DNA from: an uncultured Victivallales bacterium
GTDB lineage: Bacteria; Verrucomicrobiota; Kiritimatiellia; UBA8416; CAYSRM01
Assembly (NCBI GenBank): GCA_964475205.1
Contig: CAYYVQ010000002.1
Location: 9,965-73,964, forward strand
Reading direction: 5' to 3'
Length of the DNA: 64,000 nucleotides
Positions 25,086 through 50,535 of the stretch are shown here, piece after piece (the first letter of the stretch is position 1; each line of letters opens with the position of its first letter). The notes under the pieces were generated by a model. The model worked only from the letters and a program-made list of their open reading frames with translations. It searched no databases and had not been told where the DNA came from. Position numbers and translations under genes: made by a program.

Positions 25086-25196
25086 TTTATTTGTCCCCCA
25101 GAATTTGGAATTCCAATATCCACAATACTACATGTTCCGTTTAATCTGAACCAGCAAAGCCAATCCCTCATGCTTGCGGGTCCGGTTGCGCATCCC

Positions 25197-27171: not shown

Positions 27172-27181
27172 ATCTGGTTTC

Positions 27182-28834: not shown

Positions 28835-28876
28835 ATCCTGACACAACAGCCGAGACGGCAAACGCCGCACAGCAAC

Positions 28877-29518
28877 CTATTTCCTGATGTATTCGTAATC
28901 CTGCATGTTAATGTATTTGAATGGCGAACTGGCCCTGTCCATCAGATACCCGTCTCTTTCAGTCACTACATCGCTGTTCAGAACCCTTTTGTTCTCCCAC
29001 CAGTCCTCCGGAAGATCCCTGTCCTGTCTATCTGAGACATAAGCAATAAGGGTTCCCTCGAATCTTATTTCAACGGCAATGGCAACCAGTTGACCAAACC
29101 GCAACAGCGCATGCGGCCTGAGATATGCCGTGCTTATGTGTTCGCGCCCCTCCTGGATATCGCCATACGTGACATTTTCTTTATAAAGACTGTAAGCGGG
29201 CCGTCCGTCAACCTCGCCCCTGCTCATTGCGTAATACTGAAAAGTAAGCGAATCAATCCATTCGGGAGCCGTGTCGTAGGTCGTCTTGATCTCAACCCAT
29301 TCACGGGGACGTTTAACGCTGCGTCGCACATCGGCATCATAGCGCGGGGTTTCTATTAAAGCCCTGCGGCTCAAACCTTCCAGCGCCCTTATCTTCAGTA
29401 TCCCCGGATTATCACCGGTTTCCGCGCCCGGATAAACAGGCCTGCCCTGTCCAAAAGACCTGAACGTTAAGCCCGAAAAAAAAGCCAGAACAGTCAATAT
29501 GTATAGGATACGTTTCAT
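28877..29518 (-). CDS. secreted hypothetical protein
   Basis: A signal peptide MKRILYILTVLAFFSGLTFRSFGQG is present and no recognisable domain. It sits upstream in the same strand run as pilM. Confidence 0.5.
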   Translation of the reverse strand: MKRILYILTVLAFFSGLTFRSFGQGRPVYPGAETGDNPGILKIRALEGLSRRALIETPRYDADVRRSVKRPREWVEIKTTYDTAPEWIDSLTFQYYAMSRGEVDGRPAYSLYKENVTYGDIQEGREHISTAYLRPHALLRFGQLVAIAVEIRFEGTLIAYVSDRQDRDLPEDWWENKRVLNSDVVTERDGYLMDRASSPFKYINMQDYEYIRK

Positions 29519-36300: not shown

Positions 36301-39300
36301 GGGGCAACAAACCAGATACGATACGAACCCCCCATCCAGACCGAGGCTAATCAGGCAGGCGATAGTATACTGGTAAGAGACAATTTCACCGGCACAAATC
36401 AGGTGGTTGTCCGGTACGACCTTGCAACGGGGACATACCTGATATTCAGGGCGGCATACCAGGATTTTAATGAATGGAACCTTGCGTCAACCGAGTATTT
36501 TGACCAGAGCCTGAGCGAAAGCACAATATCAAGCACGACCAACACCTTCGACCACTGGCCCGTAGACAGCGTCGATCCGGATCCGGAAAAGCCCGACACC
36601 ATGATTGAAGATATGGAAAGCTGGACAGTCGGCGCTTACTATGACGATTCCGGGCGCAGCGACATGAGCGCAAACGGCTGGTATTGCCAGGCTGCTGAAA
36701 TCATCGGAGATCCTTACGGTGGCGAGGATAAGGCTTTAAGGTTTGATCCGACCGATGAGCACATTTACACCCAGGGCAAAATATGGCCGCACCGGGCTAC
36801 CCTTACGAAAGGGCTTGATACATTCCAGTTCAAGTACTACTGGTCCCTCTCGAAGGACAATAACCCCGCCTATTACAACCTTGGCTCAAACCTGGACAAT
36901 TACCAAATCACTGCAAGCATCACAGGTCCCGAAACTTCGCCAAGGCCGTCCTACTCAGCTCTTGCCCGCTATCAGGACACGGATAATTACTACGAATTCA
37001 GGCTCAGGAGCAGAGACACCGACAATAGTGACACGATCCTTGAGCTGTACCGCCACAACAATGGAGCAGCAGAGCGCCTTGACGCAACGGCTGACAACAA
37101 CAACAACTTAAGAAACCGGACTCAGAACATTAAATTTTCGGTTTGCACCAACAACGGCGGACGCGCCTACATACGTTTTGAGTCAAACGGAGAAGCAAAA
37201 CTATTCCATGACACGGATACATCGTCAGTTTTGGCTTCTCCCGGTTCATTCGGATTCCTGTGCAACGGCGCGGATATACGTATAGACAACATAGAAGTGC
37301 GCCATCAGCATCGTCAGCATTTTGACAACTGGCTTGACGATCCAACAGGTTGGGTCGTTACCAATGGTTATGTGCATAGCAATTATGACGACTGTCGTCT
37401 TCCGGGCAACAACGACGCAAGACTTACAACCCCGTACCTTGGCTATGATGTTGGAACGCTCTCTTTCTATTACAAAAAATATAACAACGACGGAGCGTGC
37501 GAGGTATACGTATATGGGTCCAACAACGCCTCAGACTGGACTGTCATCACAAACTGGAGCACAACCTCCAGCGGCTCTTACAAAACACTTACCGACGGGC
37601 TTACAGGGTATAATTACTTTCAGATTAGAAACGAAACTACAAATTCGGCCGGTCTTGAGATTGATAACGTGGTTATTACCGAGGATGATGACTTCTACAC
37701 TAATCCCTTCGACACCGCCGCTTCAACATCTGACTGGACGGATGTGACAGGCGATATATGGTACTACGATTCGACCAACCAGACCTACAACCGCCCAGGC
37801 GAAGTGGGGCCGCCAATTGATTTTGTCGTGCAGAAAGGGTATACCAACGAAAGTTTTACCTACGCGCCCACAAGCTGGATAGACGTAGCCACAATAACCG
37901 CTACGAATATGAAGTACCAGACAGCAAACGTTGAATTTGAATACTGGGACGAGCTGTTTGTTCGAATCAAGCATGACGACGGCCAGGCAAGCCTGGTCCT
38001 GGACGATCTGAAACTGACAAAGTGGCGCGGAACTGATTCCTATACCGATACCAATAACTGGAAGGCAACCGGTATATGGGTTTCCGAGCATTCCCCGGAA
38101 GACAGATGCATCGAGCTTTGGAGATCAAAGATCAGCCCGGACAAGCCTCAATATGTGCGCTCCCCCCTCATGGAAGGCATAGGTTCTGTCACATTCCTGC
38201 AAAAGGTGGCCAACGGACCGGCCGAGTTCCAGATTGAAATTGCTTCTGAAGACGCTCCTGACACCTTTGTGCCCCAGGCGACGGTAACCGTGACAAATGA
38301 GGACTGGCAGACCTATACGTACATGATACAGACTAACGATAATTTCTATGCAAGAATCCGCCACACAACCACCAACCGTAATACTGTCCTTTACATAGAC
38401 GACATGGAAATTTCAGACTACGCCGAACGAGACAGCAGGACGTGGGAAGCATATAACGCTCTGATAACTCCAAACGAAGACTCGCGTGAATTCGAGCCGT
38501 ACTCGGGTTACAGAACAGCTTACCTTAACAACAACCCGACAAACGGAACGGCTTCCGGTGACAACTTCGATCGCGACAGGCCGTATATCCAGTCGCCGCG
38601 AATGCCAAACGGAATAGGCGAGATATCATTCTGGTACAGAAACTGGGAGACAGACGGTCTCCCGGCGGGAACATTCCACATAATGTCATCGCCAACCGAC
38701 GGCGGCACATTTGACGAATGGACGCAGATCACGACGGTTTCAAACCTCACGAATACGGATTACCGTTATTTCTCAACAAACCATTACAATGCCGACCACC
38801 GCTACGTGCGCGTATACAGTGAAACCAATTCGGGCTGCTCCCGGCTGGCCATTGATAACCTGCTTATCGGCCACCCCCTGGCTGCCGACTTCAGCGTGAC
38901 CAACCTCACGACTATTCCTGAAGTGCCCCTGTATTCATCATCTGTAGATTTGTCTGTAGATCTCTACAACTTCATCCTCCAACCTCAGAACATCCAGGTA
39001 AGGGCATACTATAACATCGGATCCAACAACTGGGCTCAGTGGGAGAACTGGAACACCAACAACTATATAGACCTTGACCTCACATCTTCCAGCCCTGCAC
39101 AGCGCACTTATCAGTCCTCAGGTGCATCGATTCCTCAGCTCCCAGTCAATACAGTGGTACAATACTACCTGGAATTCACTTTCGACGGACCTAATTCAGA
39201 CAAAACAAGTCCGAAAACCTATGCTGCGTTCTCAAACCCGGATTATTATGATCCCATCGATCTCAACGACGGCCACTCAGTCACAAACCCCTACTACTTC

Positions 39301-41646
39301 GTCCTCGGATCGAAGCCGGGAGAGGTATGGCTGAATGAGGTTAACTATGCCAACAATGGTTTTGAAACTACCAACGAATATATTGAGATCGTCGGCAGGG
39401 AGGGAATAGATGTTGACGACTGGGAAGTCGAGCTGGTTACTACTGCAGATATAACTTATGACAGCGCCGTACTCACAAACGGATCTCCTTTTGCCAACAC
39501 AACAAATGGCTTTGGCTTTATTGTCTATGGCGATCCCGGGGTCAACAATGTCGACCTGGTTTTCGAAACGCCTTCAAATCAGAATATTGAGAAAAACAGC
39601 GGCGCAAGACTCGTTAGAGGCATGGGGGCCCATGCAGATAAAATATGCTGGGGCGACCCTGATACTCTGGATACATTGACATCAAATGGCTACCGATATA
39701 TAGGAGAGAAGACTACTATTTACGCCTTCTCTCCGCTATATGCAACGGGAACCGGCATAGAAAAGTCTGATTTTACAGACTGGGACTTCAATACATCCAG
39801 CGGCTCATGGTACTCGCCGGGTAACGAAAACGAATCACAAACTATGATCGCCTATCAATCAACTCAGACTCTTACAGTGGCATCGGCTTTAGGCACGCCT
39901 TCCCCTGCGACAGGAACCAACGCTTATCCGAGGGGAACTACGTTGACCTGCGCCATGACCGACTCGCCCATAAACATCGGCGTCCTTTCCACCCAGTACC
40001 TGTGCACAGGATGGAGCGGCAGCGGCGATATCCCGACTTCAGGCTCCACCACCAACACCGGAGAGATAATGCTGCTTAGTGACTCGTCCATCACCTGGCA
40101 GTGGGTCACCAACGTCTACCTCGACGTGCAGACAAACGGGAACGGCTCGGTCGATAACACGGGCTGGTTCCAGCAGCATTCGGCCGTGACAGTAACGGCT
40201 ACGGCAGCCGAATATAACGCGTTCACCGGATGGACCGGAGACACCAACGGATGCAACATCTCGTCAAATGTCCTTACAATCGATCAGCTCTCGGAACCCC
40301 GGGGTCCGATTACCGCTAATTTCGAGTCCACTGACCGCACTCTCGACGTGACTTCAACCTATGCCGCGACCAACATCGCGCCACCCCCCGGATCACATGT
40401 CTACCATGACAATGATCCCCTTTCTTGCGTGGTGAGTAACCGTGCGATCTACAAGGGATCAATGGCGACACAGTACCTGGTTACCGGCTGGAGCCCCACC
40501 GGAAGTGTGCCTGAGATGCCAGCTATCGGAACAGAGACAAACTTTGTATGGGAATGCGATGCGGGAGTTGAAACATGGAACGGGAATGATGGCGATGACT
40601 GGGTTACAATCCTGGTTGCCGATGGGGACGAAAAAGGGCTTGGGAACTTCACTCGCGACAGTTTCGCCACCAACGGAATATCTGTTGGCGACGATCGAAT
40701 ACTTGACAATACAACAGTTATGGACTTTGGCGGCAATCTTTACTGGGATGCGTCTGTAGATATTCCGACCGGGCTGAGAGTATACACAGTGGTCTTCAAC
40801 AGCGCTGACATATCTACAGCCACCCATTATATCATCCCTACCAATGCGAACACGTTCTTTACTATTGACGGCAATGATTACGACTGCGGTACGGCCCTTG
40901 CAGGCGAATGGACGCCTCTTGTTGCTCCTGAGACAAACAATACCGCCATAAGCACAGGGCCATTCAATATAACATCGGATTCCAGCATAGACTGGCTCTG
41001 GCAGACAAATCATTACCTGGACATTTCAGTGAGCGGCAGCGGCATCGTAGATGTGGCAAGCGCCTGGTTCAAGTCAACCAGCAACGTAACAATAACAGCC
41101 TATCCTGAGTCAGGCTATACGCTTGATTCCTGGACGGGCAACACAAACGGATGCGTAATAAACAATCTGCAGATTGAAGCGCCAATGACTCTTGCCAGGA
41201 ACATCACGGCCTCTTTTGTTCCGGAATCAAATGACAGAACAGATCAAGGAACGCCGTATTCGTGGCTCGATGATTACTACACGTCCAACTACGATTACTG
41301 GGACACTAACGATTCGGACCTTGACGGAATGGCCGCGTGGATGGAATACGTAACCGGAACCGACCCTACAAATGAACAATCAACATTCCAAATACTGGAA
41401 ATAGGCTACGGCGACGGATCAAACTTTTTAAAGTGGTACGCAACCACCAACAGCGGCGTTTACACACCGTTTGGAATCTACAGGACAACCAATATACTTG
41501 AAGGATGGGGTTCGCCATACATCACAAACGTGGGTCCGCGCGATCCCGACGGGACCGGCACAAACACATGGTGGGATACAAATCCTCCGCCGGCCGATGT
41601 CCCGGTATACTATCGCCCGTACGTCATTTGGACCAACAGCCCATAA
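33376..41646 (+). CDS. giant secreted multi-repeat surface protein (2756 aa) with a lamin-tail-like domain, InlB-B-repeat-like modules and a C-terminal D-x-D-x-D-G / GTDP module
   Basis: The signal peptide is MKTVNDKLTLAKASLVALSFVLYASLPLAAQA. At least six modules carry [LI]xSPxxxxG[IV]G.[IV]SF[WY]Y[RK]NW. VWLNEVNYANNGFETTNEYIEIVGREGIDVDDWEVEL is LTD-like. Three YL[CV]TGWS....I.W modules follow. The C-terminus is GTPYSWLDDYYTSNYDYWDTNDSDLDGMAAWMEYVTGTDPTNEQSTF. Confidence 0.8.
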   Translation: MKTVNDKLTLAKASLVALSFVLYASLPLAAQADMYQDFDQWETPQSFGNYEKNGWQLNDGAAYVAEGNTNGLLNDTGANLRSPYSSNGIGRVTWKTRLWSSGSVTYELQASASPDFTNPIPLATYTCDTSSAWQYFTNDLALYDGLYLRWNKNSSSPWLKFDDVHVRLPPSYVNITNVQTHPVSPIVGTNTFISATVEQQAGASNITASLFYRTDAASSFTEISMSSNGVDSYITDTGILTTTPNLTVEYYIKTDFDGRYTSSTQYYPAGGSSDPSSFVVRALSPYTNISVKGADETNMHLVDNNQWKGVLTTNGLLSDPVFYFESGSGTWGDDNQSVSNLPVYGTAQSGSSNITVEGTVTSHLAFAFDDNSQDYSIQQCEYIDFDNWTVGTTGNYGTYTNSEGWVLDAGRINKNSDNEWDRALRGRYAILKHGYTNQFDREIQYLRSPYMDDGVGTISFWYRNWEKDGSPEAGYLVQKSATGAGDWITVSDSYNTNITSAGYLWTQIGIADRNAHYVRIVNTNESNDSWLCLDEVAVSHPGATVGLTDPWRSAASPLLGESVDVSITTTNVGGGATNLECYVWFRHEDSSAFSQITLSRSNSVFYATIPATPEGEVEYYFECTYEGFNAATIFYPEGGADAPSLLTYTNQQSHGNTRYEDFESWSTPDVFDDYTNAAGWVIHQGAVYDNRGLIGDSSESASLTSPELSNGVSSIYFDLANWQSGENIAEIQTSTNGTTFQPIATITNTEVHGAREYYQIQVDDNKVTHIRVLKTDDKGSHLYIDNVVISYPPADVDITDQFYAPGYPMTNDEVTVSCVITSSNARQSAYNLDPEMHYRSEDSQWTSVGMNHSGSNVYTAVIPANTPGTIQYYIECGFDGYYYGPENQSPAFLPDAPAASERPDTFFSYDVRHHHSDYSHLSITGSVETASMTLIGNDYWQGVVAIDQPTNEIQLALNGHNKWLGSSYSSETDTWGATNQIRYEPPIQTEANQAGDSILVRDNFTGTNQVVVRYDLATGTYLIFRAAYQDFNEWNLASTEYFDQSLSESTISSTTNTFDHWPVDSVDPDPEKPDTMIEDMESWTVGAYYDDSGRSDMSANGWYCQAAEIIGDPYGGEDKALRFDPTDEHIYTQGKIWPHRATLTKGLDTFQFKYYWSLSKDNNPAYYNLGSNLDNYQITASITGPETSPRPSYSALARYQDTDNYYEFRLRSRDTDNSDTILELYRHNNGAAERLDATADNNNNLRNRTQNIKFSVCTNNGGRAYIRFESNGEAKLFHDTDTSSVLASPGSFGFLCNGADIRIDNIEVRHQHRQHFDNWLDDPTGWVVTNGYVHSNYDDCRLPGNNDARLTTPYLGYDVGTLSFYYKKYNNDGACEVYVYGSNNASDWTVITNWSTTSSGSYKTLTDGLTGYNYFQIRNETTNSAGLEIDNVVITEDDDFYTNPFDTAASTSDWTDVTGDIWYYDSTNQTYNRPGEVGPPIDFVVQKGYTNESFTYAPTSWIDVATITATNMKYQTANVEFEYWDELFVRIKHDDGQASLVLDDLKLTKWRGTDSYTDTNNWKATGIWVSEHSPEDRCIELWRSKISPDKPQYVRSPLMEGIGSVTFLQKVANGPAEFQIEIASEDAPDTFVPQATVTVTNEDWQTYTYMIQTNDNFYARIRHTTTNRNTVLYIDDMEISDYAERDSRTWEAYNALITPNEDSREFEPYSGYRTAYLNNNPTNGTASGDNFDRDRPYIQSPRMPNGIGEISFWYRNWETDGLPAGTFHIMSSPTDGGTFDEWTQITTVSNLTNTDYRYFSTNHYNADHRYVRVYSETNSGCSRLAIDNLLIGHPLAADFSVTNLTTIPEVPLYSSSVDLSVDLYNFILQPQNIQVRAYYNIGSNNWAQWENWNTNNYIDLDLTSSSPAQRTYQSSGASIPQLPVNTVVQYYLEFTFDGPNSDKTSPKTYAAFSNPDYYDPIDLNDGHSVTNPYYFVLGSKPGEVWLNEVNYANNGFETTNEYIEIVGREGIDVDDWEVELVTTADITYDSAVLTNGSPFANTTNGFGFIVYGDPGVNNVDLVFETPSNQNIEKNSGARLVRGMGAHADKICWGDPDTLDTLTSNGYRYIGEKTTIYAFSPLYATGTGIEKSDFTDWDFNTSSGSWYSPGNENESQTMIAYQSTQTLTVASALGTPSPATGTNAYPRGTTLTCAMTDSPINIGVLSTQYLCTGWSGSGDIPTSGSTTNTGEIMLLSDSSITWQWVTNVYLDVQTNGNGSVDNTGWFQQHSAVTVTATAAEYNAFTGWTGDTNGCNISSNVLTIDQLSEPRGPITANFESTDRTLDVTSTYAATNIAPPPGSHVYHDNDPLSCVVSNRAIYKGSMATQYLVTGWSPTGSVPEMPAIGTETNFVWECDAGVETWNGNDGDDWVTILVADGDEKGLGNFTRDSFATNGISVGDDRILDNTTVMDFGGNLYWDASVDIPTGLRVYTVVFNSADISTATHYIIPTNANTFFTIDGNDYDCGTALAGEWTPLVAPETNNTAISTGPFNITSDSSIDWLWQTNHYLDISVSGSGIVDVASAWFKSTSNVTITAYPESGYTLDSWTGNTNGCVINNLQIEAPMTLARNITASFVPESNDRTDQGTPYSWLDDYYTSNYDYWDTNDSDLDGMAAWMEYVTGTDPTNEQSTFQILEIGYGDGSNFLKWYATTNSGVYTPFGIYRTTNILEGWGSPYITNVGPRDPDGTGTNTWWDTNPPPADVPVYYRPYVIWTNSP

Positions 41647-41718
41647 AAAGGTATTGTGGAGGCACAAGCTCCACGAGTCCGCAATCTAAAGAAACAAACT
41701 GCCGCCCCAGACGCACCC

Positions 41719-43887
41719 CTACTCTCTGAGCACATCAAAATACCTGAGGAAATATCGATGCTTGCCCCCGGCATCAGGCCATGGATCGCGCCATACAACC
41801 GCAACTGCCCGGGCCCTGGCGCGCACACTTCCGTAATGACCTTCTCGCAGCCCGCCCACAGGTTCGGCATAAGAATCAGCGGCAAGTATTATGGTAAAGA
41901 TATTCTGACGTGTAGTCAGCAGCTCCACAGAATTCCTGATCGGAGCTTCTCTGTCAATTTCGTCTCCGCTTACCGAGTCGCCCCAATCTAAACGGCCAAG
42001 TTCAGACACATTTGTGTACGGGCCATTGCTCCAGATTTCATTCGCAATTTCTTCTGCGACCCCCTGATCAATCTGTCGGTCAGGCAGTGGAAATACGGGA
42101 TCGTACTCCTTAAGCGGAACATACGTGAAAACCGCCGCAAGCGCGTTAGTATTGAAAGAGTTAATGTTGACCAGGCCTTTTTGAAAGCCTTTTTCCCTCG
42201 TTGTGAACCAGTCAAGCACGTGGTCGTAATCCGACCATTCGGCATGCTTGTATAACCCAATGGTATGCCATGGCCTGTCAAGGCATATATATCCCAGTTC
42301 ACCAACGGTCTGCAGGTTCGTGTTCGCAATATGCAACGCAGTGTCACCATCAGCCTTCGGGTCATAAGCCGCCTCGTCGGAATCAAAAACCGCTAAGGTA
42401 ACGGTATTGTCTTTACCTATTGTCGGCTTATCCACGCCATAAAACATCTTAATGGTCTTACCCGGAATCCAACTTGCAACATTGTCCGCGCTACCGTTAA
42501 AGCGCGGATCCACACACTCAAACCAGTTGGTTATTGTGAAATGATCTCCAGCGGAAACTTCTCTATCCACTTCAAAAACAAAACCCGCACTCCCTGAAAA
42601 GTCCGGATATGGCACCTGGTCAACAAGGTTTGATGAAGAAGTACTCTCTTTTAACCTTATTTTCAGTTCCGCGGTAAAATTCAGATCAAAATCGTTTGTG
42701 TCCACGTTTCCATTCTTGTCTTCCCCGTAAATATCCCTTCTATTGTATTGTTCGCTGGCGCCAAACGTCTCGGCGCCGCTCATGTCGTCAGGAATCAATT
42801 CGTCATGCGTATTGGCGTCTTTTTTTTCAAAACTCAATTCATACTCAAGACTATACGACTCCCCCGAGAATTCCCTGAAAGGATACATACACTCAAGTTG
42901 CATAACGGGCTCAAACCCGTGTGGCATTGAATATTGCCCGTTGGTTTCTACATGTAGCGTATAGCAGAAAACCACTTCATTGAGCATTGGAGCCATGTCA
43001 ACGTGTCCATCGGCAAGATTAGTAGGAACCAGATCTTCATCTATGTAGTCAAGTAAATTTGAATACGCAAGGCCCGCGTCATAGTCAGCCCTCATGGTAC
43101 ATTCCTCAAAGGCGCTGAGTATATCCTCCTCCGACCATTCGCTCCTGTTTGTGCCTATATAAACCTGAGAACGAAGATTCGTCCCATTGTGCAGAAACTC
43201 GCCGACCGGACTCAGCGAAAACGTGAATAAATCCTTAACGTTGGTGGCGCTAAGAAAACCTTCGGCATCGCCAAAGGCGGTAAGCTCTCTGAAAGTCTCG
43301 AACGGGTAGTTGTCACGCTCGTTAAGCAGGGCAGCAGCATCCCTCACCCCGTCAATTCCGTCAATCTGTATTTCCGCCGGAGACACCCCCCTTAGCCTGT
43401 CGAGGCCTCCAGCATGGTTGATGTCGATCCATCCTGAACAATCCGCGGCCACAAAAGAGTAGCGTCCCACAATAGTCCCTTCAGAATTTTCAATTGTGTG
43501 CCAGTAGGCCGGCGTCGACATGACATTATCCGCAAGATCGTCCGGCAGAAACTCAAGGGCTTTTCTGGTCAGCAGCCTGGCCCTAGTGTCTTCGTTCGTA
43601 AAGACGCCCTCTCCGCGCGATCCAAGAACTGCATCAGGCGGAAATATTTTAAAAGAATTAGACGTCACCATCTGCCCGTTAATGTCTTCCATTGCGCGCC
43701 CAAGCGCGGCAAACAACATGTGCCTGGATTGCATCGAGTTCCTGAAGCTCGCGGCGCCCTGCCGTTCGACCCGCATTGAGATCGAGAACGCCATAGCCGC
43801 GATCATCAATACCGCAAGCAGCCCCAGCACCATGATTATGGCTACTCCACGTCTGTCATTAATCCAGATTGTTCTTTCTTTTTCCAT
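41719..43887 (-). CDS. gspK: GspK-like minor pseudopilin, unusually large (~720 aa)
   Basis: The N-terminus RRGVAIIMVLGLLAVLMIAAMAFS is the GspK-type uncleaved hydrophobic leader. It is the last gene of the pseudopilin operon. The start is taken at MEKERTIW. Confidence 0.6.
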   Translation of the reverse strand: MEKERTIWINDRRGVAIIMVLGLLAVLMIAAMAFSISMRVERQGAASFRNSMQSRHMLFAALGRAMEDINGQMVTSNSFKIFPPDAVLGSRGEGVFTNEDTRARLLTRKALEFLPDDLADNVMSTPAYWHTIENSEGTIVGRYSFVAADCSGWIDINHAGGLDRLRGVSPAEIQIDGIDGVRDAAALLNERDNYPFETFRELTAFGDAEGFLSATNVKDLFTFSLSPVGEFLHNGTNLRSQVYIGTNRSEWSEEDILSAFEECTMRADYDAGLAYSNLLDYIDEDLVPTNLADGHVDMAPMLNEVVFCYTLHVETNGQYSMPHGFEPVMQLECMYPFREFSGESYSLEYELSFEKKDANTHDELIPDDMSGAETFGASEQYNRRDIYGEDKNGNVDTNDFDLNFTAELKIRLKESTSSSNLVDQVPYPDFSGSAGFVFEVDREVSAGDHFTITNWFECVDPRFNGSADNVASWIPGKTIKMFYGVDKPTIGKDNTVTLAVFDSDEAAYDPKADGDTALHIANTNLQTVGELGYICLDRPWHTIGLYKHAEWSDYDHVLDWFTTREKGFQKGLVNINSFNTNALAAVFTYVPLKEYDPVFPLPDRQIDQGVAEEIANEIWSNGPYTNVSELGRLDWGDSVSGDEIDREAPIRNSVELLTTRQNIFTIILAADSYAEPVGGLREGHYGSVRARARAVAVVWRDPWPDAGGKHRYFLRYFDVLRE

Positions 43888-44169
43888 CTCATTTACGTCT
43901 TTCAAAACGTTTCTCGAGCCGATCCAATCAGCCCGCCTCGCCTTTCCACACAAACTGATGTGTTTCCTGCTATATCTCCGTCATCCGTGTCAATTAGCGT
44001 CTATTAGCGGTTCCTCTTTCCAGGGCGGCAGCAGGTTGACACAACCTGCTGTACTCCAACGTACAGCGGGTTATCACGTAACCTGCTGCCCAACCATAAC
44101 CCGCGTTACCCAGCATATAACCCATACCCCGACGTCCAACTTGTCACAACGCAGGCCCGCCAAAGCGCA

Positions 44170-44652
44170 TCAGTCATATTTGTACCGGTTCCTGTTAGGA
44201 AACCAGACAGTCGTCTCAAAATATTCAGGCTCCGGCGCATCCGGCGCATCCGGCTCGGCAAATCTAACCCGATAAACATTTCCCCAGGGATCCTTGTAGC
44301 CGTCTTCCCATTTCGGTGTGTCAATATCAAGAAATTTCAGTTCCCTTGGATTCTCCGATGTGTCATCCCCCTGCAGGATAGCCATTCTCTGCTCGGTCAT
44401 GGCATAATACTGGTCTCCGGAAACAAAAGAAGGCCACTTTTCGTAAGTAATCCGATACGCTTTCCAGGCCTTCGCCAACTCTCGAACTTCCGATTTGGCG
44501 CTGTCTATGTGCGCCCTCTGCCTGGCGGATCTGGCGGCAACAAACATAAGGCCGGATAATATCATGATAATCGCCAGCACCGCCAGCATCTCAAGCAGCG
44601 TAAAGCCATGTCGCCGGGTTTCTGTGCCGGCAAAATCCGGATCTGAATACAT
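44170..44652 (-). CDS. GspG-family pseudopilin paralogue
   Basis: HGFTLLEMLAVLAIIMILSGL is the prepilin motif and DPWGNVYRV is GspG-type. The start is taken at MYSDPDFAG. Confidence 0.65.
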   Translation of the reverse strand: MYSDPDFAGTETRRHGFTLLEMLAVLAIIMILSGLMFVAARSARQRAHIDSAKSEVRELAKAWKAYRITYEKWPSFVSGDQYYAMTEQRMAILQGDDTSENPRELKFLDIDTPKWEDGYKDPWGNVYRVRFAEPDAPDAPEPEYFETTVWFPNRNRYKYD

Positions 44653-44656
44653 ATTT

Positions 44657-45229
44657 TTACCATGACCTGATGTCATCATCTTCTCCATCGTCGTCCTCGC
44701 CGTCCGGCCCATACGAAAGAACCCCGAGCCCTGAAATCGTGTCTTCACGCTCAAGTTCAAGGCGCACATTCAGATATTCCGGCAGTGCATCGGAAGCGCC
44801 ATCGCTTCTTATGAACTTCAAGGCCCTTATGCCTTCAACAAGCGTCGAGTGGCCAGAACCGGGCAAATTCATAGTCACCGTATCACCGCTCTGTTCAATG
44901 CTTACCACCTGCGCGGCCCTGTTGCTTCCCTCCATATCCAGAACCACAAACTCTACTGAACTGCCGTTATCCGGAATGGATGTCTCACCATGCCCCTCAT
45001 AACCGTCAGGCGGATTTACCGCCCTCGACATCCACGTGGAAATGATGCCGAGCGCGGCACGGGCGGCCATGGCAGACTCCGATTTCCTGCTTCCCGCGTC
45101 CCAGGCAATCGTGGACTGGTGAAAAACAGCGCTGATAATCATAACGATAAGCACAAGGATTACAGTTGCGCTCATCACTTCGATAAGCGTGAAACCGCTC
45201 TTTTGTCTGTCCGGCATTGCAATTTTCAC
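44657..45229 (-). CDS. gspJ: GspJ-like minor pseudopilin
   Basis: SGFTLIEVMSATVILVLIVMIISAVF is the prepilin motif. The position after the gspI-like gene fits, and the C-terminus is acidic. Confidence 0.55.
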   Translation of the reverse strand: MKIAMPDRQKSGFTLIEVMSATVILVLIVMIISAVFHQSTIAWDAGSRKSESAMAARAALGIISTWMSRAVNPPDGYEGHGETSIPDNGSSVEFVVLDMEGSNRAAQVVSIEQSGDTVTMNLPGSGHSTLVEGIRALKFIRSDGASDALPEYLNVRLELEREDTISGLGVLSYGPDGEDDDGEDDDIRSW

Positions 45230-45244
45230 AAATGGTTCTCCACG

Positions 45245-45727
45245 TCACATTCCCACGAAGGTCATCTCCGTCAAATACTCCTCCACAGCTTCTTCAAAGT
45301 CGCCAAGCTGCCCCCTCGCCACACGGACCCGGCACTGCTTTCTGCTCTCGTCTTCAGTGGAACTGATGGTTATCTCGTACCTGATCCAGTTATCTGCGGC
45401 GTCCTCGGGAAAATTCACCCCTCCTCCGACTGCGGTGTTAGTCCAACCCTCGGTTTCAAGGGGATAAAGGTCTTTGTCCAGCATTGCTTTAAACCCAGCG
45501 CTGTCAACCCAGTCGCTCCAGTTACTGACCGTCGACGCTTTGCCCTGGAATGAATTGAGTATATGATCGGCGAACATAGCCTCGTAAGTGTCGGAAACAT
45601 TCTGTTTTGATTCCTGCAGTCCCAGGGGAAAAAGAGACATAAGCCCGAACAGGCCTACCGCCAGAAGCAGAATGGCAAGATTCACTTCTATTAAACTAAA
45701 CGCGGATTTTTGCAAACCTGATTTCAT
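45245..45727 (-). CDS. gspI: GspI-like minor pseudopilin
   Basis: KSAFSLIEVNLAILLLAVGLFGLMSLF is the prepilin motif. The protein is short and sits between the H-like and J-like genes. The start is taken at MKSGLQ. Confidence 0.5.
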   Translation of the reverse strand: MKSGLQKSAFSLIEVNLAILLLAVGLFGLMSLFPLGLQESKQNVSDTYEAMFADHILNSFQGKASTVSNWSDWVDSAGFKAMLDKDLYPLETEGWTNTAVGGGVNFPEDAADNWIRYEITISSTEDESRKQCRVRVARGQLGDFEEAVEEYLTEMTFVGM

Positions 45728-45746
45728 TTGTCTATTGCCGTCCATT

Positions 45747-46430
45747 TTACGGATCCATAACGATTTTCGCGAACCCCTGAGCATCTACTTCAACCTCGAA
45801 CAGATCTATCTCGGAAGCCCCGCGGGTATCTTTAACAACAACACTGCCGCGCGTAGCCGTGCCGTCGCTATAAAACTCAAAACGATCATTATCCGGTGTC
45901 TCAGACCACTGAAGACCTTCCGGCAACCTGTTGACCGGTCTGACTTCCCACCCGTACTCGTTGTGGCTGCCGCTCCATATATTGTCGCTTGTTTCCATTA
46001 CTATCTCGAAATTATCGTTTGTGTAGGTTCTCGTTACGATAGTAGACTCGCCGTTCTCCAGGTTATAAATCTTTGCAGTCTGTCCGGAGTTAAGCTCCAG
46101 GCTGCCGAACCTGTCACTGAGCCCTCCGGCCTCGGCCTTTCCGACGCCCTCACTCGAACATGTAACATAAAAACATGTATTTGATTCCTCTTTCAACAAA
46201 ACCACTGTTTTACGTCCTTCAAGCATGGCGGCCTGCCGCGCAAAACGCAGGGTCGACCGCAGGTGATGGGCAGAGCTGCTCCCACGGATTCCTTTTGTCA
46301 AACTGAAATACGATGCCATGCCGATCCCCGCCATAATGATAACTATGCCCATTACGGTCAGCAGCTCGATTAAAGTAAATCCGCTGCCCGCCTTTATCGG
46401 CCTGCATGAATCAACTTGAAACTTCATCAA
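45747..46430 (-). CDS. gspH: GspH/FimT-like minor pseudopilin
   Basis: GSGFTLIELLTVMGIVIIMAGIG...LRFARQAAMLEGR is the prepilin motif plus the GspH-type Arg/Ala helix. Confidence 0.55.
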   Translation of the reverse strand: MMKFQVDSCRPIKAGSGFTLIELLTVMGIVIIMAGIGMASYFSLTKGIRGSSSAHHLRSTLRFARQAAMLEGRKTVVLLKEESNTCFYVTCSSEGVGKAEAGGLSDRFGSLELNSGQTAKIYNLENGESTIVTRTYTNDNFEIVMETSDNIWSGSHNEYGWEVRPVNRLPEGLQWSETPDNDRFEFYSDGTATRGSVVVKDTRGASEIDLFEVEVDAQGFAKIVMDP

Positions 46431-46915
46431 TAAGTCTGGCCTTTTTCAACAGTGGAGTTTGTGACAGTAACACTGTCATTTTCGCAGTTTATGATTATGG
46501 TGTACGCATCGCCCCATGGATCGACAATAGCGTCGTCTTCAAGCCTGTATTCGTCCCAGTTAACAAAACGCACCTTCCGCGGATTATAACCACCGCTATC
46601 CGATGACAGGTCGTCAATGATCTCCTTATGCCCTGTATCGCCGTCATTTGTATGCACACCCGTGAATTGATCCGTTTGCAGCCCGGGCCACCTGTCATAT
46701 TCATGGCGATAGTTATATATTGCCAGAGCAAGCGTATGCACGTCTGCCTGGGCTTTACGGCGTTGCGCGGCTCTGCGCGATCTGCTGAAAGCAACCGTCA
46801 GCAAACCGAACAGCATGCCGATGATAACAACAACCATCAACAACTCGATCAGCGTAAAGCCCTTTCGAGCCGACCGCGATTCGGGATTTATCATGCCTGT
46901 ACAACCGGTTTTCAT
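46427..46915 (-). CDS. gspG: GspG-family major pseudopilin
   Basis: KGFTLIELLMVVVIIGMLFGL...LALAIYNYRHEYDRWPG...DPWGDAY are the GspG hallmarks. Confidence 0.7.
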   Translation of the reverse strand: MKTGCTGMINPESRSARKGFTLIELLMVVVIIGMLFGLLTVAFSRSRRAAQRRKAQADVHTLALAIYNYRHEYDRWPGLQTDQFTGVHTNDGDTGHKEIIDDLSSDSGGYNPRKVRFVNWDEYRLEDDAIVDPWGDAYTIIINCENDSVTVTNSTVEKGQTY

Positions 46916-47437
46916 CTATTTATCCCAGCTCTTTATGTCGTCCCCTGTGTTTTCAGTCCGGTCAGGGCCCTTTGACCATATTGCAACATACTTATCCACG
47001 TCCCCGTGCGGAGCGCTTACCTCTCCATCAAGATCCGTATCAAGCCTTATTGACAAGAGTTCGCCCCACGGATCGCGCAGTCCTGATGTAGCGGAGTTTG
47101 TTCCCTGCTCCTCGATAGTGAAATCCACATATTCCTCTATGTATCCAATCGCATTGGTGTCCATCTCGGTTAATGTTTCAGAGGGAAACTCCTGGTTCTC
47201 CGTCAGGTAATAATTCCACGCTGTATCAAGCTGGCTTATCATCTGCCTGCACGCCACTTTTTTGCCCTGCTCAGGCGTTTTGCGGATCGCGCCAAGCAAC
47301 AGCCCGGCCAGGGTGGCGATAATTGCGATAACAACAAGAAGCTCTATCAGCGTAAAACCAAACCCTTTCAAGGGAGCAGTCCTCCGCCTTTCTTCCAGTC
47401 CTTTTTTTTCACGCATAAAAATATTGTCCTTGAACAC
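46916..47437 (-). CDS. GspG-family pseudopilin paralogue
   Basis: GFGFTLIELLVVIAIIATLAGLL and DPWGELL are present. Confidence 0.65.
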   Translation of the reverse strand: MFKDNIFMREKKGLEERRRTAPLKGFGFTLIELLVVIAIIATLAGLLLGAIRKTPEQGKKVACRQMISQLDTAWNYYLTENQEFPSETLTEMDTNAIGYIEEYVDFTIEEQGTNSATSGLRDPWGELLSIRLDTDLDGEVSAPHGDVDKYVAIWSKGPDRTENTGDDIKSWDK

Positions 47438-48160
47438 CTACATACTGTCTCTGTGTATATCATTTGCAGCAGGGTTGTCATCATCCTCTGTTTCAGGATC
47501 GCCCTTCGACCATAGCTCATAACTCAGGTAAGGCGGATCAGATTCATATTTTATGACCCGGTCCCACCCATCCAATATAGTGTCTACGTTATTCGTAAAA
47601 GGCTTTCCATCTTTGGTGTAATGCGTGGGGCCTTCCTTTGTGGTAATCACGCCGGTCATAAATTGGCTCCATCTTCCCTTGGCGCGCTTGTCCCGTGAAT
47701 TATCCCCTATCCATGCGCTGTCACTATTGTCCGGATTAACAAGATGAAGCGGATTCATGGTGTCTCTCTTCCTCGTATCCAGGAAGGCTACAAGTCCGTA
47801 CTCGAAGTTCAGCTCCTCGACATTCTCCTCCTCCGTAAAGTAATTATTATTCTCCCAATATGCCATGTAAGCCTCATTGGTATTCTCATACTGGTAGCAG
47901 ATCCGGCAGTCGTCGCCATGAAACGTGCACACACCCGGCTTAACCGGCGGATAAACGCCATACTCGCTTTTAAACTCTTCAAGCGCCCCGGCAACCCTGG
48001 TCAAGACTTCAACTGTTTTAGCCTTTTCCTCGCTCTTACCCGAAAGTCCAGAAAGCCTGAAAACAATTCCAGCCAGAATCGCAATCACCACCATGACAAC
48101 GAGCACTTCAATTAATGTAAAAGAACTGCGCCTCTCAGCTTTCATGCCACTCACCTCCAT
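47438..48160 (-). CDS. GspG-family pseudopilin paralogue (extended C-terminal)
   Basis: SSFTLIEVLVVMVVIAILAGIV...LEEFKSEYGVYP is the prepilin motif. Length is 240 aa. Confidence 0.6.
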   Translation of the reverse strand: MEVSGMKAERRSSFTLIEVLVVMVVIAILAGIVFRLSGLSGKSEEKAKTVEVLTRVAGALEEFKSEYGVYPPVKPGVCTFHGDDCRICYQYENTNEAYMAYWENNNYFTEEENVEELNFEYGLVAFLDTRKRDTMNPLHLVNPDNSDSAWIGDNSRDKRAKGRWSQFMTGVITTKEGPTHYTKDGKPFTNNVDTILDGWDRVIKYESDPPYLSYELWSKGDPETEDDDNPAANDIHRDSM

Positions 48161-48206
48161 GTAAATATTACCACTTATTCACTTTTGTGAAAAGGGAAAA
48201 CACTCA

Positions 48207-48400
48207 GCAATTCTCATTATAGCCATTTTGCCACGTTTGGCGTGGCCAGAGTTCCGGCACGATATTGCAGCCACGCGCGAGTAGGCCCGGCTTCACCGAA
48301 GCCGAGGCCCCAAGAGCGCTGGGCTTCGGTGAAGCCCGCGCTACTACGCACATCGTTATACAAATAGGTTTTGGCGGAAAGAGGCCGTAATGAGAATTGC
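48207..48400. mobile_element. 194-bp MITE-like element, copy B (intergenic between gspF and the first gspG paralogue)
   Basis: It is near-identical to 30875-31068, with a few substitutions inside the TIRs (atagcc versus atggcc, ggccgt versus ggccat). The spurious ORFs 30839-31021 and 48204-48410 encode the same peptide. Confidence 0.8.
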
Positions 48401-48409
48401 TGGAAAACA

Positions 48410-49693
48410 CTACCCCGCCATTGTGCTTACAACGTGAATCAGCGGAACAAACATGGCTATCACAATCGTGCCGACTATTCCAGCCAGCAGCACAATCATT
48501 ATTGGCTCAATAATTGATGTCAGCCCCTCAACGGCAGTGTCAACTTCATCTTCGTAGGTATCGGCAATTTTCAACAGCATTTCCGGCAAAGCGCCTGTTT
48601 CCTCGCCTACATCCACCATGCTGATGACCATCCCGGGGAAAACCCTGGAATGCTCCAGCGGTGTGGACATGTCTTCGCCTTCCTTGACATTGTCATGAAC
48701 AGCCTGTATTGCATCTGACAGTACCCGGTTGCCCGAAGTGTCTCTCACAATGTTCAGCGCCTGCAGGACAGGAACTCCGGAGGTCATCAACGTCCCCAGT
48801 GTGCGCGAAAATCGAGCCACCGCGCTTTTGGTGAAAAGCTGCCCGAACAGGGGCATTTTAAGCTTTATCTTGTCCACAATAAAACGTCCCCTGTCCGTAC
48901 GCGCAAGTATCTTGTATAAAAAGATAAAACCAACTATAAACCCTAGAAACACGTACCACTGCCGCGCAATAAAGTTGCTGATGGCAATTACAACCTCAGT
49001 CAGAATAGGCAGTCCCTCGTCACCCAGCAGATCATTGAATATTTCCTTGAACCTTGGGATGACATAAATCATAAGAAATGTCAGAATGCCTACAGCGGCA
49101 ACAAGAACCACTACGGGGTAAATCATTGCGCTCTTGATCTTGTTCTTGATCCTCTCAGCCTTTTCCATGAATTCGGCAAGCCTGTTAAGCACAACTTCAA
49201 GAACACCGCCGGCTTCTCCGGCCCTGACCATGTTGATAAACAGGTTGTCAAAAATCCTGGGATGCTGCTCCAGCGCCTCGGAAAAAGTGCTGCCGCCTTC
49301 AACCGACTCGCCCATTTCAGTCAGGGCCTTCCTCAAGGCGGAATTCTTTTCCTGCTTGAGAAGAATTCTAATTCCCCTTAACAACGGCAGTCCCGCATCA
49401 ACCAGGGTTGCCAGTTGCCGGGTAAAAATCATAAGCTGCTTGGCCTTCACCCTGGGACCAAGAAAACCCGGCAACTTGATCTCCATCTTCAGGCCTTGCC
49501 CCTGCTGCGCCGCAGCCTGACTCCCTCGACCGGAAGCAGCCTGTTTTCTTCTGCCCCCGATTTCACTTACCTTTGTCGGAAACAACCCCTTCGCGCGGAT
49601 CATGGCCACCGCCTGCGACTGATTATCCGCCTCAAGAACACCCTCGGTCTCATTGCCGCCCGAGTCCATTGCAAAAAACTTGAATCTAGCCAT
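48410..49693 (-). CDS. gspF: type II secretion / type IV pilus platform protein GspF/PilC family
   Basis: The N-terminus FKFFAMDSGGNETEGVLEADNQSQAVAMIRAKGLFP is followed by two T2SSF repeats with three TM segments. Length is 427 aa. Confidence 0.85.
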   Translation of the reverse strand: MARFKFFAMDSGGNETEGVLEADNQSQAVAMIRAKGLFPTKVSEIGGRRKQAASGRGSQAAAQQGQGLKMEIKLPGFLGPRVKAKQLMIFTRQLATLVDAGLPLLRGIRILLKQEKNSALRKALTEMGESVEGGSTFSEALEQHPRIFDNLFINMVRAGEAGGVLEVVLNRLAEFMEKAERIKNKIKSAMIYPVVVLVAAVGILTFLMIYVIPRFKEIFNDLLGDEGLPILTEVVIAISNFIARQWYVFLGFIVGFIFLYKILARTDRGRFIVDKIKLKMPLFGQLFTKSAVARFSRTLGTLMTSGVPVLQALNIVRDTSGNRVLSDAIQAVHDNVKEGEDMSTPLEHSRVFPGMVISMVDVGEETGALPEMLLKIADTYEDEVDTAVEGLTSIIEPIMIVLLAGIVGTIVIAMFVPLIHVVSTMAG

Positions 49694-49767
49694 TATAAAT
49701 CCCCCTTATGCTCATAAGTAATTTATCAATGGCAAACAGAAAAGGCAAACTGCAAATGCATCAGAGC

Positions 49768-49919
49768 TAGCCCGGAATGGCACTTAGATAAGCCCTTTTC
49801 AAAGCGTATAGTTTCACCGCGCGTCCTGTGTGTGAGTGTGTGAGTTTGTCAGGATGAGAGAGATCAATGCCCATCGTCAAATTCAATCCCAAACAGCGTT
49901 ATCTAAGCGCCATTCCGGG
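49768..49919. repeat. 152-bp element bounded by 22-bp inverted repeats in the gspF upstream region
   Basis: gcccggaatggcacttagataa at 49768-49790 pairs with ttatctaagcgccattccgggc at 49898-49919 with one mismatch. The interior contains gtgtgtgagtgtgtgag. Confidence 0.55.
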
Positions 49920-50497: not shown

Positions 50498-50535
50498 TTT
50501 TCAGACTCCCTTGAAATCCTGTCCCTGTTAAAAGC

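Follow-up and report, generated by a model that had tools for sequence, protein, structure and literature searches.

What machine is served by an operon in which several GspG-like pseudopilin genes accompany a tip protein of double the usual size? Such an operon lies in a 64,000-nucleotide stretch of DNA (the window) from an uncultured gut-type Victivallales bacterium (Lentisphaerota, PVC group). Its genes follow rplQ and gspF/pilC in the order G1, G2, G3, H-like, I/PilV-like, J-like, G4 and K-type (Table 1). The gene calls bear out the layout given in a first-pass annotation, with three consecutive GspG-like genes (240, 173 and 162 aa) on the minus strand after gspF, then H-, I-, J- and K-type genes in canonical order, and a further GspG-like gene with a DPWG motif before K. 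The best overall explanation, held with a probability of about 0.7, is that the operon encodes the pseudopilin (filament) module of a T2SS/T4P-kind type IV filament machine, with an Amuc_1102-1098-like cluster as its partner.

Table 1. Coordinates of the operon, its genes and its surroundings in the window
Feature	Position	Strand	Evidence or remark
Amuc_1102-1101-1100-1099-1098-like cluster (context)	22038..29518	-	five collinear NCBIfam matches
Secreted multi-repeat protein gene, 2756 aa (context)	33376..41646	+	convergent
Terminator-like hairpin, between K-type and giant genes	41656..41674	-	consensus scan only
Operon of eight prepilin-type genes	41719-48160	-	ORFs present, all intact
K-type cap pseudopilin, 722 aa from ATG	41719..43887	-	
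Structured spacer, 282 nt, G4 to K	43888..44169	-	RNA fold -101.6 kcal/mol, z -3.6
G4, short GspG-like pseudopilin, 160 aa, J to K	44170..44652	-	N_methyl 29.9 bits, T2SSG 19.4 bits
J-like minor pseudopilin, 190 aa	44657..45229	-	N-terminal HMM matches only
I/PilV-like minor pseudopilin, up to 179 aa	45245..45784	-	TIGR02523 PilV 28.6 bits (cutoff 52.2)
H-like minor pseudopilin, 227 aa	45747..46430	-	Pfam GspH 17.7 bits (gathering score 21)
G3, short GspG-like pseudopilin, 162 aa	46427..46915	-	N_methyl 30.0 bits, T2SSG 19.6 bits
G2, short GspG-like pseudopilin, 173 aa	46916..47437	-	N_methyl 25.7 bits
G1, GspG-class pseudopilin, 240 aa, ~100-aa insertion	47438..48160	-	N_methyl 29.6 bits
gspF/pilC platform protein, first in unit after rplQ	48410..49693	-	Pfam T2SSF 1.1e-68
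rplQ	50093-50497		5' of gspF

The genes from rplQ and gspF through K probably form a single transcription unit, and the rplQ-F-G1 arrangement recurs in three related loci (L011, L038 and L064). A motif scan found the canonical prepilin motif [G/A/S]-F-[T/S]-L-[I/L]-E in seven of the eight operon genes. All eight are maintained coding genes, since their dN/dS values are 0.08-0.19 against an 81%-identical relative (L001). With the exception of N_methyl, none of the family-level HMM scores of the window's own pseudopilin-operon proteins reaches its curated cutoff. The layout itself, which combines multiple GspG-like genes with a tip protein of double size, is an old one shared by many metagenome relatives. 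A spacer between G4 and K is predicted to be structured; it has no Rfam match and is missing or far shorter in most related loci.

The K-type protein is, as first annotated, more than twice the normal size (722 aa versus about 310-330 aa; the mechanical ORF, read from a TTG, gives 744 aa). An assembly or frameshift artefact that joined an ordinary GspK gene to one lying downstream could account for its unusual size, and two longer relatives (P0079 and P0019) do resemble read-through or fusion products of G4 and K. This explanation has next to no probability: full-length, collinear orthologues are found at 81%, 59% and 28% identity, conservation is highest at the C-terminus, and of the best 150 listed relatives nearly all have 680-780 aa and match over their whole length, which refutes the artefact. 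There are 1303 relatives in all, 309 of them at E<=1e-30. Those of 900-1234 aa align only in their N- and C-terminal parts.

The leader of K (RRG/VAIIM) has Gly at -1 and lacks Glu at +5, and across the family Gly-1 is invariant (68/68) and position +5 is I, L, V, M or A. By sequence, none of the 68 members matches Pfam T2SSK, K scores 27.7 bits on the NCBIfam GspK model (cutoff 130), and K has no sequence match to the crystallised GspK and XcpX chains. Its AF2 model (pLDDT 88.8, pTM 0.83), compared with known structures, is a GspK/XcpX fold plus a beta-sandwich. The best matches are T2SS GspK and XcpX, and because 207-217 residues align with them, the alpha-domain is taken to be present. Secondary structure in the model runs from alpha1 (11-73) and beta strands (87-149) through a helical region (~150-295), the beta-sandwich (~296-460) and a second helical region (~461-655), which holds an HhH-like motif (VNINS..ALAAVF), to the C-terminal strands (663-720). 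The extra domains anticipated in the first-pass annotation are thus found, but they appear to be an internal insertion (~residues 150-655) and not a C-terminal appendage. About 500 residues separate the N- and C-terminal pilin strands; as this span holds the counterpart of the GspK alpha-domain, only about 400 residues are extra mass. Against one relative (L002), the last ~65 residues are 88% identical, making them the most conserved part, whereas the beta-sandwich is 44% identical.

The first-pass annotation suggested that tandem major-pseudopilin paralogues may allow the composition of the pseudopilus to vary, a reading in which the four GspG-like genes are recent duplicates and interchangeable. 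One operon does hold four of them, and G3 finds its nearest paralogue in G4, and G4 in G3 (35% identity, E 3e-19). Their pairwise identity of only 26-35% speaks against recent duplication, however. In a lineage whose K shares just 28% identity, the best match of each is the orthologue at its own position (for G2, in L005, at 35% identity), such orthologues are found in lineages with K 25-34% identical, and 21 of the 22 complete related loci have three G-like genes, no more and no fewer, between F and H. All are under purifying selection (dN/dS against L001 is 0.185 for G1 and 0.10 for G4), and the classes differ systematically in length, T2SSG score and C-terminal loop. Interchangeable 'major' subunits are therefore unlikely, and variable composition through recent duplicates is a very improbable reading.

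The differences among the classes are seen in their motifs and profile scores. Prepilin motifs are present in G1-G3, as stated earlier, although G1 has SFTLIE, with Ser at -1 (leader RRSS/FTLIE), in place of the GFTLIELL ascribed to it. DPWG, slightly overstated as a feature of all three, is found in G2 and G3, and G1 has DGWDR. G1 ends in WSKG..DDDNPAANDI and is 33% identical to G2 at its N- and C-terminal ends alike; G2 has a C-terminal loop, GPD..GDDIKSW, and G3 lacks the corresponding GPDG..DDI loop. G4 is read from a plausible ATG at 44652, 4 nt 3' of the J stop, within a mechanical ORF at 44170-44769, and is the most conserved of the pseudopilins (85-89% identity to L001). J-G4-K is the order at 37 loci, and J-K at 18.

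Checking the paralogues against profile HMMs, as the first-pass annotation had suggested, gave a divided outcome: all four pass the Pfam N_methyl threshold and all four miss the T2SSG gathering score of 21, G1 having no match and G2 reaching 16.5 bits over profile positions 4-106. On TIGR01710 (cutoff 88.85), G2 scores 37 bits and G3 50.1. Among orthologues, those in position 1 pass T2SSG in 8 of 10 cases, and those of classes 2, 3 and 4 never do (G4 class 0/10). Judged by these scores, the position-1 class alone can be counted as a genuine member of the T2SSG family, and it qualifies only through its orthologues. A profile of the G family matches PulG (5wda) at 6.9e-15, and its positions 31-116 match the N-terminally truncated GspG crystal chains 3fu1, 4lw9, 3gn9 and 2kep at 2-6e-4. 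G1 is the leading candidate for major subunit, although the window's own copy has Ser at -1 and lacks DPWG, which counts against it.

The H, I and J assignments rest mostly on N-terminal helices, gene order and size. The H-like protein, whose position is kept in 22/22 complete loci, scores below cutoff on TIGR01708 (30 bits), PRK10506 (39.5 bits) and Verru_Chthon D (20.7 bits). The I-like protein (leader KSA/FSLIE; Verru_Chthon B 26 bits, cutoff 51.4) probably starts at an internal Met near 45745. The N-terminus of the J-like protein matches ComGF, Verru_Chthon C (21.5 bits) and GspJ PRK08808 (E 0.0017), and its orthologue P0164 is labelled PulJ by JGI. Its C-terminus is of an unusual, GspG type, SYGPDGEDDDGEDDDIRSW, resembling that of G2 (E 1.5e-4); the AF2 model is unusable (pLDDT 42.9).

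Twelve kilobases from the operon lies the Amuc_1102-1098-like cluster, whose products are, in order, a pilin-like protein, a PilM-like protein, two unknowns and a secretin. Scores against the Amuc_1102, 1101, 1100, 1099 and 1098 families are 39.7, 485.6, 67, 91.9 and 433 bits (cutoffs 55, 650, 180, 50 and 750). As only the Amuc_1099 family passes, the proteins are regarded as distant homologues, from a phylum other than that of Akkermansia. The first protein also matches Amuc_1102 (PDB 7DSZ) at E 5.4e-6. Homologues of Amuc_1102-1101-1100 directly follow K in three metagenome loci (L026, L037 and L059). Operon and cluster appear to make one machine, of which the cluster is likely the assembly and outer-membrane module.

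At its other end, the operon converges on the giant gene, as noted earlier, with a gap of 72 nt (41647-41718) and not 73. The giant gene is a conserved neighbour of K: of 39 loci that show DNA downstream of K, 21 have a homologue of it, in convergent orientation, as the first gene recognised past K. The protein has no NCBIfam match, and its sole Pfam matches are Flg_new_2 and a marginal GlgE_dom_N_S (26.6 bits, cutoff 25), in which no single stretch passes alone. The first-pass annotation had mentioned neither the link to the cluster nor the conservation of this neighbour.

These surroundings bear on whether the filament is instead a surface-exposed adhesive type IV pilus, with K as a cis-fused tip adhesin whose beta-sandwich binds glycans or particles, equivalent to PilX plus PilY1, ComZ or CpaL. 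This is a tentative alternative, clearly the less probable, and it overlaps the preferred reading, from which it departs solely in the length and role of the filament. Among the matches of the partner cluster are 'Amuc_1098 family type IV pilus outer membrane protein' and PilM (TIGR01175, 165 bits, above cutoff), published work calls its homologues in Akkermansia pili-like and a pilus used to attach (PMC5332112, PMC13174399), the gspF product fits PilC (420 bits, cutoff 700) and GspF (412.9 bits, cutoff 424) equally well, and the conserved giant gene beside K is adhesin-like. A periplasmic T2SS endopilus is favoured by the T2SS proteins that K most resembles, the implied alpha-domain being without counterpart in T4aP PilX (PMC13533445), by the GspG-like shaft candidates (DPWG, the GPDG..DDI loop and T2SSG matches among G1 orthologues), and by a window that holds neither a PilT-type retraction ATPase nor PilY1.

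In the proposed T2SS/T4P-kind machine, modelled on T2SS and T4P tip complexes, K would cap the filament and its conserved C-terminal strands would complete its own pilin sheet, in keeping with the rules for K-type tip pilins, which lack Glu+5, complete the sheet with a C-terminal strand and, in CpaL, carry large inserted domains (PMC13533445). The same strands would dock the I-J pair and so start assembly at the platform formed by GspF. Roles as fixed, non-redundant low-abundance subunits or adaptors may fall to H and the short G-like proteins (G4, G2 and G3), and the shaft would be formed by G1, of the sole class scoring as true GspG. The rapidly evolving beta-sandwich would sit at the apex, probably contacting a ligand, cargo or the secretin. 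The cluster 12 kb away would supply the PilM-like protein and secretin, and the ATPase and prepilin peptidase, neither of which is in the window, would be encoded elsewhere.

Among known systems, the T2SS tip minor pseudopilins GspK and XcpX (PDB 3CI0 chain K, 5VTM chain X) share with K the Gly-1 leader without Glu+5, the closing place in the H-I-J-K series and the conserved C-terminal beta-strands. The K motifs 'D..N.N' and 'VNIN..A' are common to GspK as well. K differs in an insertion that adds a ~165-aa beta-sandwich and extra helical regions. The Verru_Chthon A-D cassette of the PVC group (TIGR02600, TIGR02598, TIGR02599, TIGR02596) pairs H-like (D), PilV-like (B) and J-like (C) proteins with a very large K-like protein (A, 1296 aa), about twice the size of K. 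The window's H, I, J and K give weak N-terminal matches to it, far under the cutoffs (protein A 22.4 versus 332), and one relative (P0005) scores 77 bits against the protein A model; the operon described here adds gspF and four G-like genes. ComZ (Thermus, PDB 6QVI) and CpaL (Caulobacter Tad pilus) are also K-type minor pilins with large inserted modules, but their inserted folds are unlike that of K, they come from different T4F classes (competence T4aP and Tad T4c), and the core of K is GspK-like with an alpha-domain.

The fimU-pilVWXY1Y2E minor-pilin operon of Pseudomonas likewise encodes an H-I-J-K-type priming set, and next to the tip genes it has one for PilE, an additional minor pilin that resembles a major pilin and invites comparison with G4. 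The present operon differs in having no PilY1, in placing G4 between J and K, and in subunits that are GspG-like and not PilA-like, with PilV below cutoff. The accounts of Akkermansia in PMC5332112 and PMC13174399 do not describe a gspF-pseudopilin operon tied to the Amuc_1098-1102 locus. The 'pili-like'/MUL2 locus of A. muciniphila is collinear with the cluster here, all five NCBIfam families being matched, and CoaE and Rho follow the secretin here too, in the order described for Akkermansiaceae MUL2 (PMC13174399).

The pseudopilin operon is laid out as the first-pass annotation described it; the gene for ribosomal protein L17 (rplQ) is followed by gspF and then by eight open reading frames, none of which contains a frame disruption. 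Seven of the eight products carry a canonical prepilin motif, and the eighth, the GspK-like protein (K), has RRG/VAIIM. Measured against the 81%-identical related locus (L001), all eight genes give a dN/dS of 0.08-0.19, with dS near saturation. The annotation also placed the end of the operon correctly, convergent with the gene for a giant secreted repeat protein, although the gap is 72 nt rather than 73 and holds a terminator-like hairpin. Its account of the three GspG-like genes that precede H (G1, G2 and G3) was slightly overstated: both GFTLIE and DPWG are present in G2 and G3, but G1 has SFTLIE, with Ser at -1, and DGWDR. The leader of the fourth GspG-like gene, G4, reads GFTLLE.

Coordinates of the pseudopilin operon and associated features (window positions unless residues are indicated)
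Feature	Position	Strand	Remarks
Rho	18888-20318		follows CoaE
CoaE	20302-20916		follows the 5'-3' exonuclease gene
5'-3' exonuclease gene			follows the Amuc_1102-1098-like cluster
Amuc_1102-1098-like cluster	22038-29518	-
DUF1559 (SBP_bac_10) prepilin gene	29641-30495	-	H-X9-DG C-terminal domain; immediately upstream of the Amuc_1102-like gene
Palindromic element, one copy	30873-31070		~198 bp; ~98% identical to the other copy, same orientation
Giant protein gene	33376-41646	+	2756 aa
rplQ, gspF and eight ORFs	41719-50497	-	order from rplQ: gspF, G1, G2, G3, H, I, J, G4, K
K	41719-43887	-	722 aa
K model elements	residues 11-720		alpha1 11-73; four strands 87-149; helical ~150-295; all-beta 301-458; helical ~461-655; three long C-terminal strands 663-720
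G4-K spacer	43888-44169	-	282 nt
G4	plausible start, ATG at 44652	-	160 aa; start 4 nt past the J stop
J-like	44657-45229	-	190 aa
I-like		-	179 aa
H-like		-	227 aa
G3		-	162 aa
G2		-	173 aa
G1		-	240 aa
Palindromic element, other copy	48205-48402		fills the gspF-G1 gap
gspF/pilC	48410-49693	-	Pfam T2SSF 1.1e-68; NCBIfam GspF 412.9 bits (cutoff 424), PilC 420 bits
Ribosomal-protein cluster	50093-64000	-	rplB ... secY-adk-map ... rpsM-rpsK-rpsD-rpoA-rplQ; pseudopilin unit directly downstream

Horizontal acquisition of the region was considered and rejected in view of its uniform GC content (0.49-0.52). The rplQ-gspF junction is kept in three related loci (L011, L038 and L064), which suggests that read-through into the pseudopilin unit from a highly expressed ribosomal operon is possible. 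No GspE/PilB-type ATPase is encoded in the 64-kb window, nor was one found upstream of gspF in the related loci, and the window also lacks a prepilin peptidase gene. An Rfam search of the operon returned no credible match, and a literature search retrieved nothing on Victivallales pseudopilins.

Conservation of the multi-G architecture was followed in a metagenome scan with 8 sequences, which yielded 80 loci whose reading frames were classified against the proteins of the window. Of the 22 loci that run all the way from F to K, 21 have exactly three G-like genes between F and H, and H-I-J always comes next. Further downstream, 37 loci carry J-G4-K and 18 carry J-K. On this count and order, the multi-G layout is both ancient and fixed, which in turn argues for distinct roles of the G-like genes rather than for interchangeable major subunits or a recent amplification. 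The suggestion that the paralogues are recent duplicates allowing alternative pseudopilus composition is therefore not borne out, as they share only 26-35% pairwise identity and each finds its best match in its positional orthologue, even in a locus (L005) whose K is only 28% identical. Such a fixed set would imply that the stoichiometry of the filament or of its adaptors is more complex than the textbook G/H/I/J/K set.

The four G proteins all exceed the gathering score of the Pfam N_methyl model (21.2), reaching 25.7-30.0 bits. None passes T2SSG (PF08334, threshold 21 bits), for which G1 gives no match and G2, G3 and G4 reach 16.5, 19.6 and 19.4 bits, and scores with TIGR01710 are 37-50 bits against a cutoff of 88.85. 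A family profile built from the four paralogues and their orthologues matches PulG (5wda) as its top PDB hit (6.9e-15), and over positions 31-116 it matches the N-terminally truncated GspG chains 3fu1, 4lw9, 3gn9 and 2kep (E 1.7e-4 to 5.8e-4). Among pilin types, only GspG was matched over this stretch; the match is weak but specific. Because the truncated chains are matched over their globular part, the globular domains of the G-like proteins are predicted to be GspG-like. The discrepancy with the sub-threshold T2SSG scores in the window is explained by a scan of orthologues, in which the G1 class alone passes: 8 of 10 position-1 orthologues exceed the T2SSG threshold, as compared to 0/10 for positions 2 and 3 and 0/10 for the G4 class. 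Members of the G1 class are also longer than the others in every case (187-408 aa) and contain an insertion that varies. In GspG structures, a motif of the GxDG...DDI type forms the C-terminal calcium-binding loop; the GPDG...DDI loop is present in G2 (SKGPDRTENTGDDIKSW), degenerate in G1 and absent from G3 and G4. At the level of sequence, the set consists of one true GspG class (G1) accompanied by three distinct short classes.

The I- and J-like genes lie immediately upstream of K, with which their products may form an apical I-J-K complex. The J-like protein ends in a GspG-type, calcium-loop-like motif (SYGPDGEDDDGEDDDIRSW), which is unusual for a protein in the GspJ position and is kept in J orthologues, including the distant L005 copy. 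An AlphaFold2 model of the J-like protein, with pLDDT 42.9 from 4 close sequences, was discarded. The minor pseudopilins and K might instead constitute a type IVa minor-pilin set (FimU-PilVWX-PilY1-PilE), but the PilV model (TIGR02523) yields 28.6 bits against a cutoff of 52.2, PilX_N is found in only 1 of 68 K relatives (E 0.0018), and no PilY1-like reading frame is present in the operon.

The size of K had raised the concern that the 722-aa reading frame is a fusion artefact caused by a frameshift. In its nearest genomic relatives, from uncultured Victivallales and Victivallaceae MAGs, K is 81% and 59% identical. It might have been taken for an orphan, given that a word-indexed search gave only 4-5 relatives, but an exhaustive HMMER search returned 1303 cluster representatives (50% clustering) at E<=1e-3, 309 of them at E<=1e-30. 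Among the best 150 listed, nearly all are 680-780 aa long and are matched end to end; the large size thus characterizes the family, which refutes the frameshift or fusion explanation. Family members that bear any name are all called 'hypothetical'. In relatives of 900-1234 aa the alignment is confined to the N- and C-terminal parts, and in four loci (L066, L074, L075 and L083), where the K-type genes encode 1100-1234 aa, no alignment of the middle regions is possible. Two further relatives, P0079 (1256 aa, from a Verrucomicrobiota MAG) and P0019 (1106 aa), have a segment resembling a GspG C-terminus just ahead of the K-like part, and are either natural G4-K fusions or products of gene-calling read-through.

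K-type pseudopilins are recognized by a prepilin-type leader with Gly at -1 and no Glu at +5 (PMC13533445). Gly-1 is found in 68/68 family members, and position +5 is I, L, V, M or A in 68/68, never Glu. Profile searches are otherwise nearly silent. The GspK model NF037980 (cutoff 130) gives 27.7 bits and the model for Verru_Chthon cassette protein A (cutoff 332.3) gives 22.4, both over the N-terminal ~55 residues only; no Pfam family, T2SSK included, matches K or its 68 relatives, and the K profile finds nothing among PDB sequences even at E<=10. An AlphaFold2 model built on the 68-sequence alignment is confident (pLDDT 88.8, pTM 0.83) and predicts a GspK-type pilin core whose beta-sheet is interrupted by an alpha-domain and closed by a C-terminal strand. 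The expectation that an enlarged GspK may hold extra domains fits this model, in which a beta-sandwich (about residues 296-460) lies inside K. Conservation is lowest in the sandwich (1.45 bits per column, as compared to 1.9-2.4 elsewhere; 44% identity to the related locus L002) and highest in the C-terminal strands (88% identity to L002). Foldseek found no match for the K model in the PDB at E<=1e-3, returning only generic beta-sandwiches. K and its relatives define a large, uncurated group of ~720-aa K-type cap pseudopilins with a predicted GspK fold and an internal, fast-evolving beta-sandwich.

Two non-coding features accompany the operon. The palindromic element is bounded by 15-nt terminal inverted repeats (CAGCAATTCTCATTA...TAATGAGAATTGCTG); the copy before G1 has a predicted RNA fold of -115.7 kcal/mol (z -8.7), and the second is located upstream of the gene for the DUF1559 prepilin. 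None of the 90 related loci examined, the 81%-identical relative among them, has the element, which thus resembles a lineage-specific, MITE-like insertion, and Rfam gave no credible match for it. The spacer between G4 and K is structured (overall fold z -3.6) and holds a 10-bp perfect hairpin (CAGCAGGTTG-tgt-CAACCTGCTG); in most related loci the G4-K gap is small or nil.

The convergent arrangement of K and the giant gene is itself conserved, given that a giant-protein homologue is the first recognized gene after K, and convergent to it, in 21 of the 39 loci with visible downstream DNA. The homologues are 27-47% identical (loci including L003, L012, L013, L023, L030 and L057). Pfam identifies only Flg_new_2 and a marginal GlgE_dom_N_S match in the giant protein, and NCBIfam gives no match. 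The protein may serve the machine as a cargo or partner.

A second cluster, 12 kb from the operon, matches in order the NCBIfam families for Amuc_1102 (39.7 bits, cutoff 55), Amuc_1101, which is PilM-like (485.6/650), Amuc_1100 (67/180), Amuc_1099 (91.9/50) and the secretin Amuc_1098 (433/750), of which only Amuc_1099_fam passes. The PilM-like protein also passes the cutoff of TIGR01175, and the 213-aa Amuc_1102-like protein matches the crystal structure of Amuc_1102 (7DSZ; E 5.4e-6). A synteny of secretin, dephospho-CoA kinase and rho has been reported at the Akkermansiaceae MUL2 locus (PMC13174399), which carries Amuc_1098-1102. Given the collinearity and the secretin-CoaE-Rho synteny found here, the Amuc_1102-1098/MUL2-type locus appears not to be confined to Verrucomicrobiota and to extend into Lentisphaerota. 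In the window, the operon and the cluster are parted by the giant gene, a gene for a 648-aa protein and the DUF1559/H-X9-DG prepilin gene, but in three loci (L026, L037 and L059) K is directly followed on the same strand by Amuc_1102-1101-1100 homologues. Owing to this adjacency, the most likely reading is that the operon and the cluster are modules of a single machine. The DUF1559 gene is a ninth prepilin-type gene in the neighbourhood, and L036, L059, L080 and L088 have similar genes flanking the operon.

The kind of filament that such a machine would build is suggested differently by its two modules. The features of K and of the G proteins point to a short endopilus, as in a type II secretion system (T2SS), and the PilM-like protein, the Amuc_1098-type secretin and the Akkermansia literature, in which Amuc_1098-1102, Amuc_1100 included, is described as a 'pili-like' cluster (PMC5332112), point to a surface pilus. 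By analogy with the tip complexes of T2SS and type IV pili, K, which has no Glu+5, would be apical, and its conserved C-terminal strands could complete the pilin sheet and recruit I and J. The H-like and short G-like proteins would connect this K-I-J primer to a shaft most plausibly made of G1, with assembly driven and housed by GspF, an unlinked ATPase and the PilM-like/secretin module. The variable beta-sandwich of K would sit at the apex, where it could make contact with cargo, with a polymer ligand or with the secretin.

The gene family and its architecture are real, conserved and uncurated; they are not a new category. A bolder reading, to which we give roughly one chance in five, is that the operon (gspF-G1-G2-G3-H-I-J-(G4)-K), the Amuc_1102-1098-like module and the giant protein belong together as a type IV filament machine of a distinct kind, which is not a canonical T2SS and not a type IVa pilus either and is known so far only from relatives of the Victivallales/Verrucomicrobiota type and from metagenomes. 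The ligand-binding module on its K cap (700-1300 aa across lineages) would be variable and exchangeable, and would serve for capture of polymers such as mucin and polysaccharides, or for export or presentation of the giant protein. If that reading is true, the operon would supply the filament that is missing from the 'pili-like' Amuc_1100/MUL2 system of Akkermansia. The pili-like nature of the Amuc_1098-1102 cluster matters for host interaction, and if the linkage holds in Akkermansia, the operon genes are obvious candidates for its filament. A specialist may be most surprised by the fixed multi-G set, the inserted tip module and the tie to the Amuc_1100 system.

Four known systems come closest to the locus. 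The Akkermansia MUL2 locus is a counterpart of the partner module, and no associated gspF-pseudopilin operon is described in the literature surveyed on Amuc_1098-1102. The Verru_Chthon cassette, on which a literature search found nothing, embodies the same idea, but the operon falls below its subfamily cutoffs (TIGR02596/98/99/600), with B at 26/51.4, C at 21.5/256.5 and D at 20.7/70 bits in addition to the protein A score. GspK/XcpX is like K in leader and in predicted fold, but K fails the GspK models and is 2.2 times the size. ComZ and CpaL share with K the principle of insertion but belong to a different class; the K family carries this idea, of a functional module inserted into a K-type tip pilin, over to a T2SS-like system.
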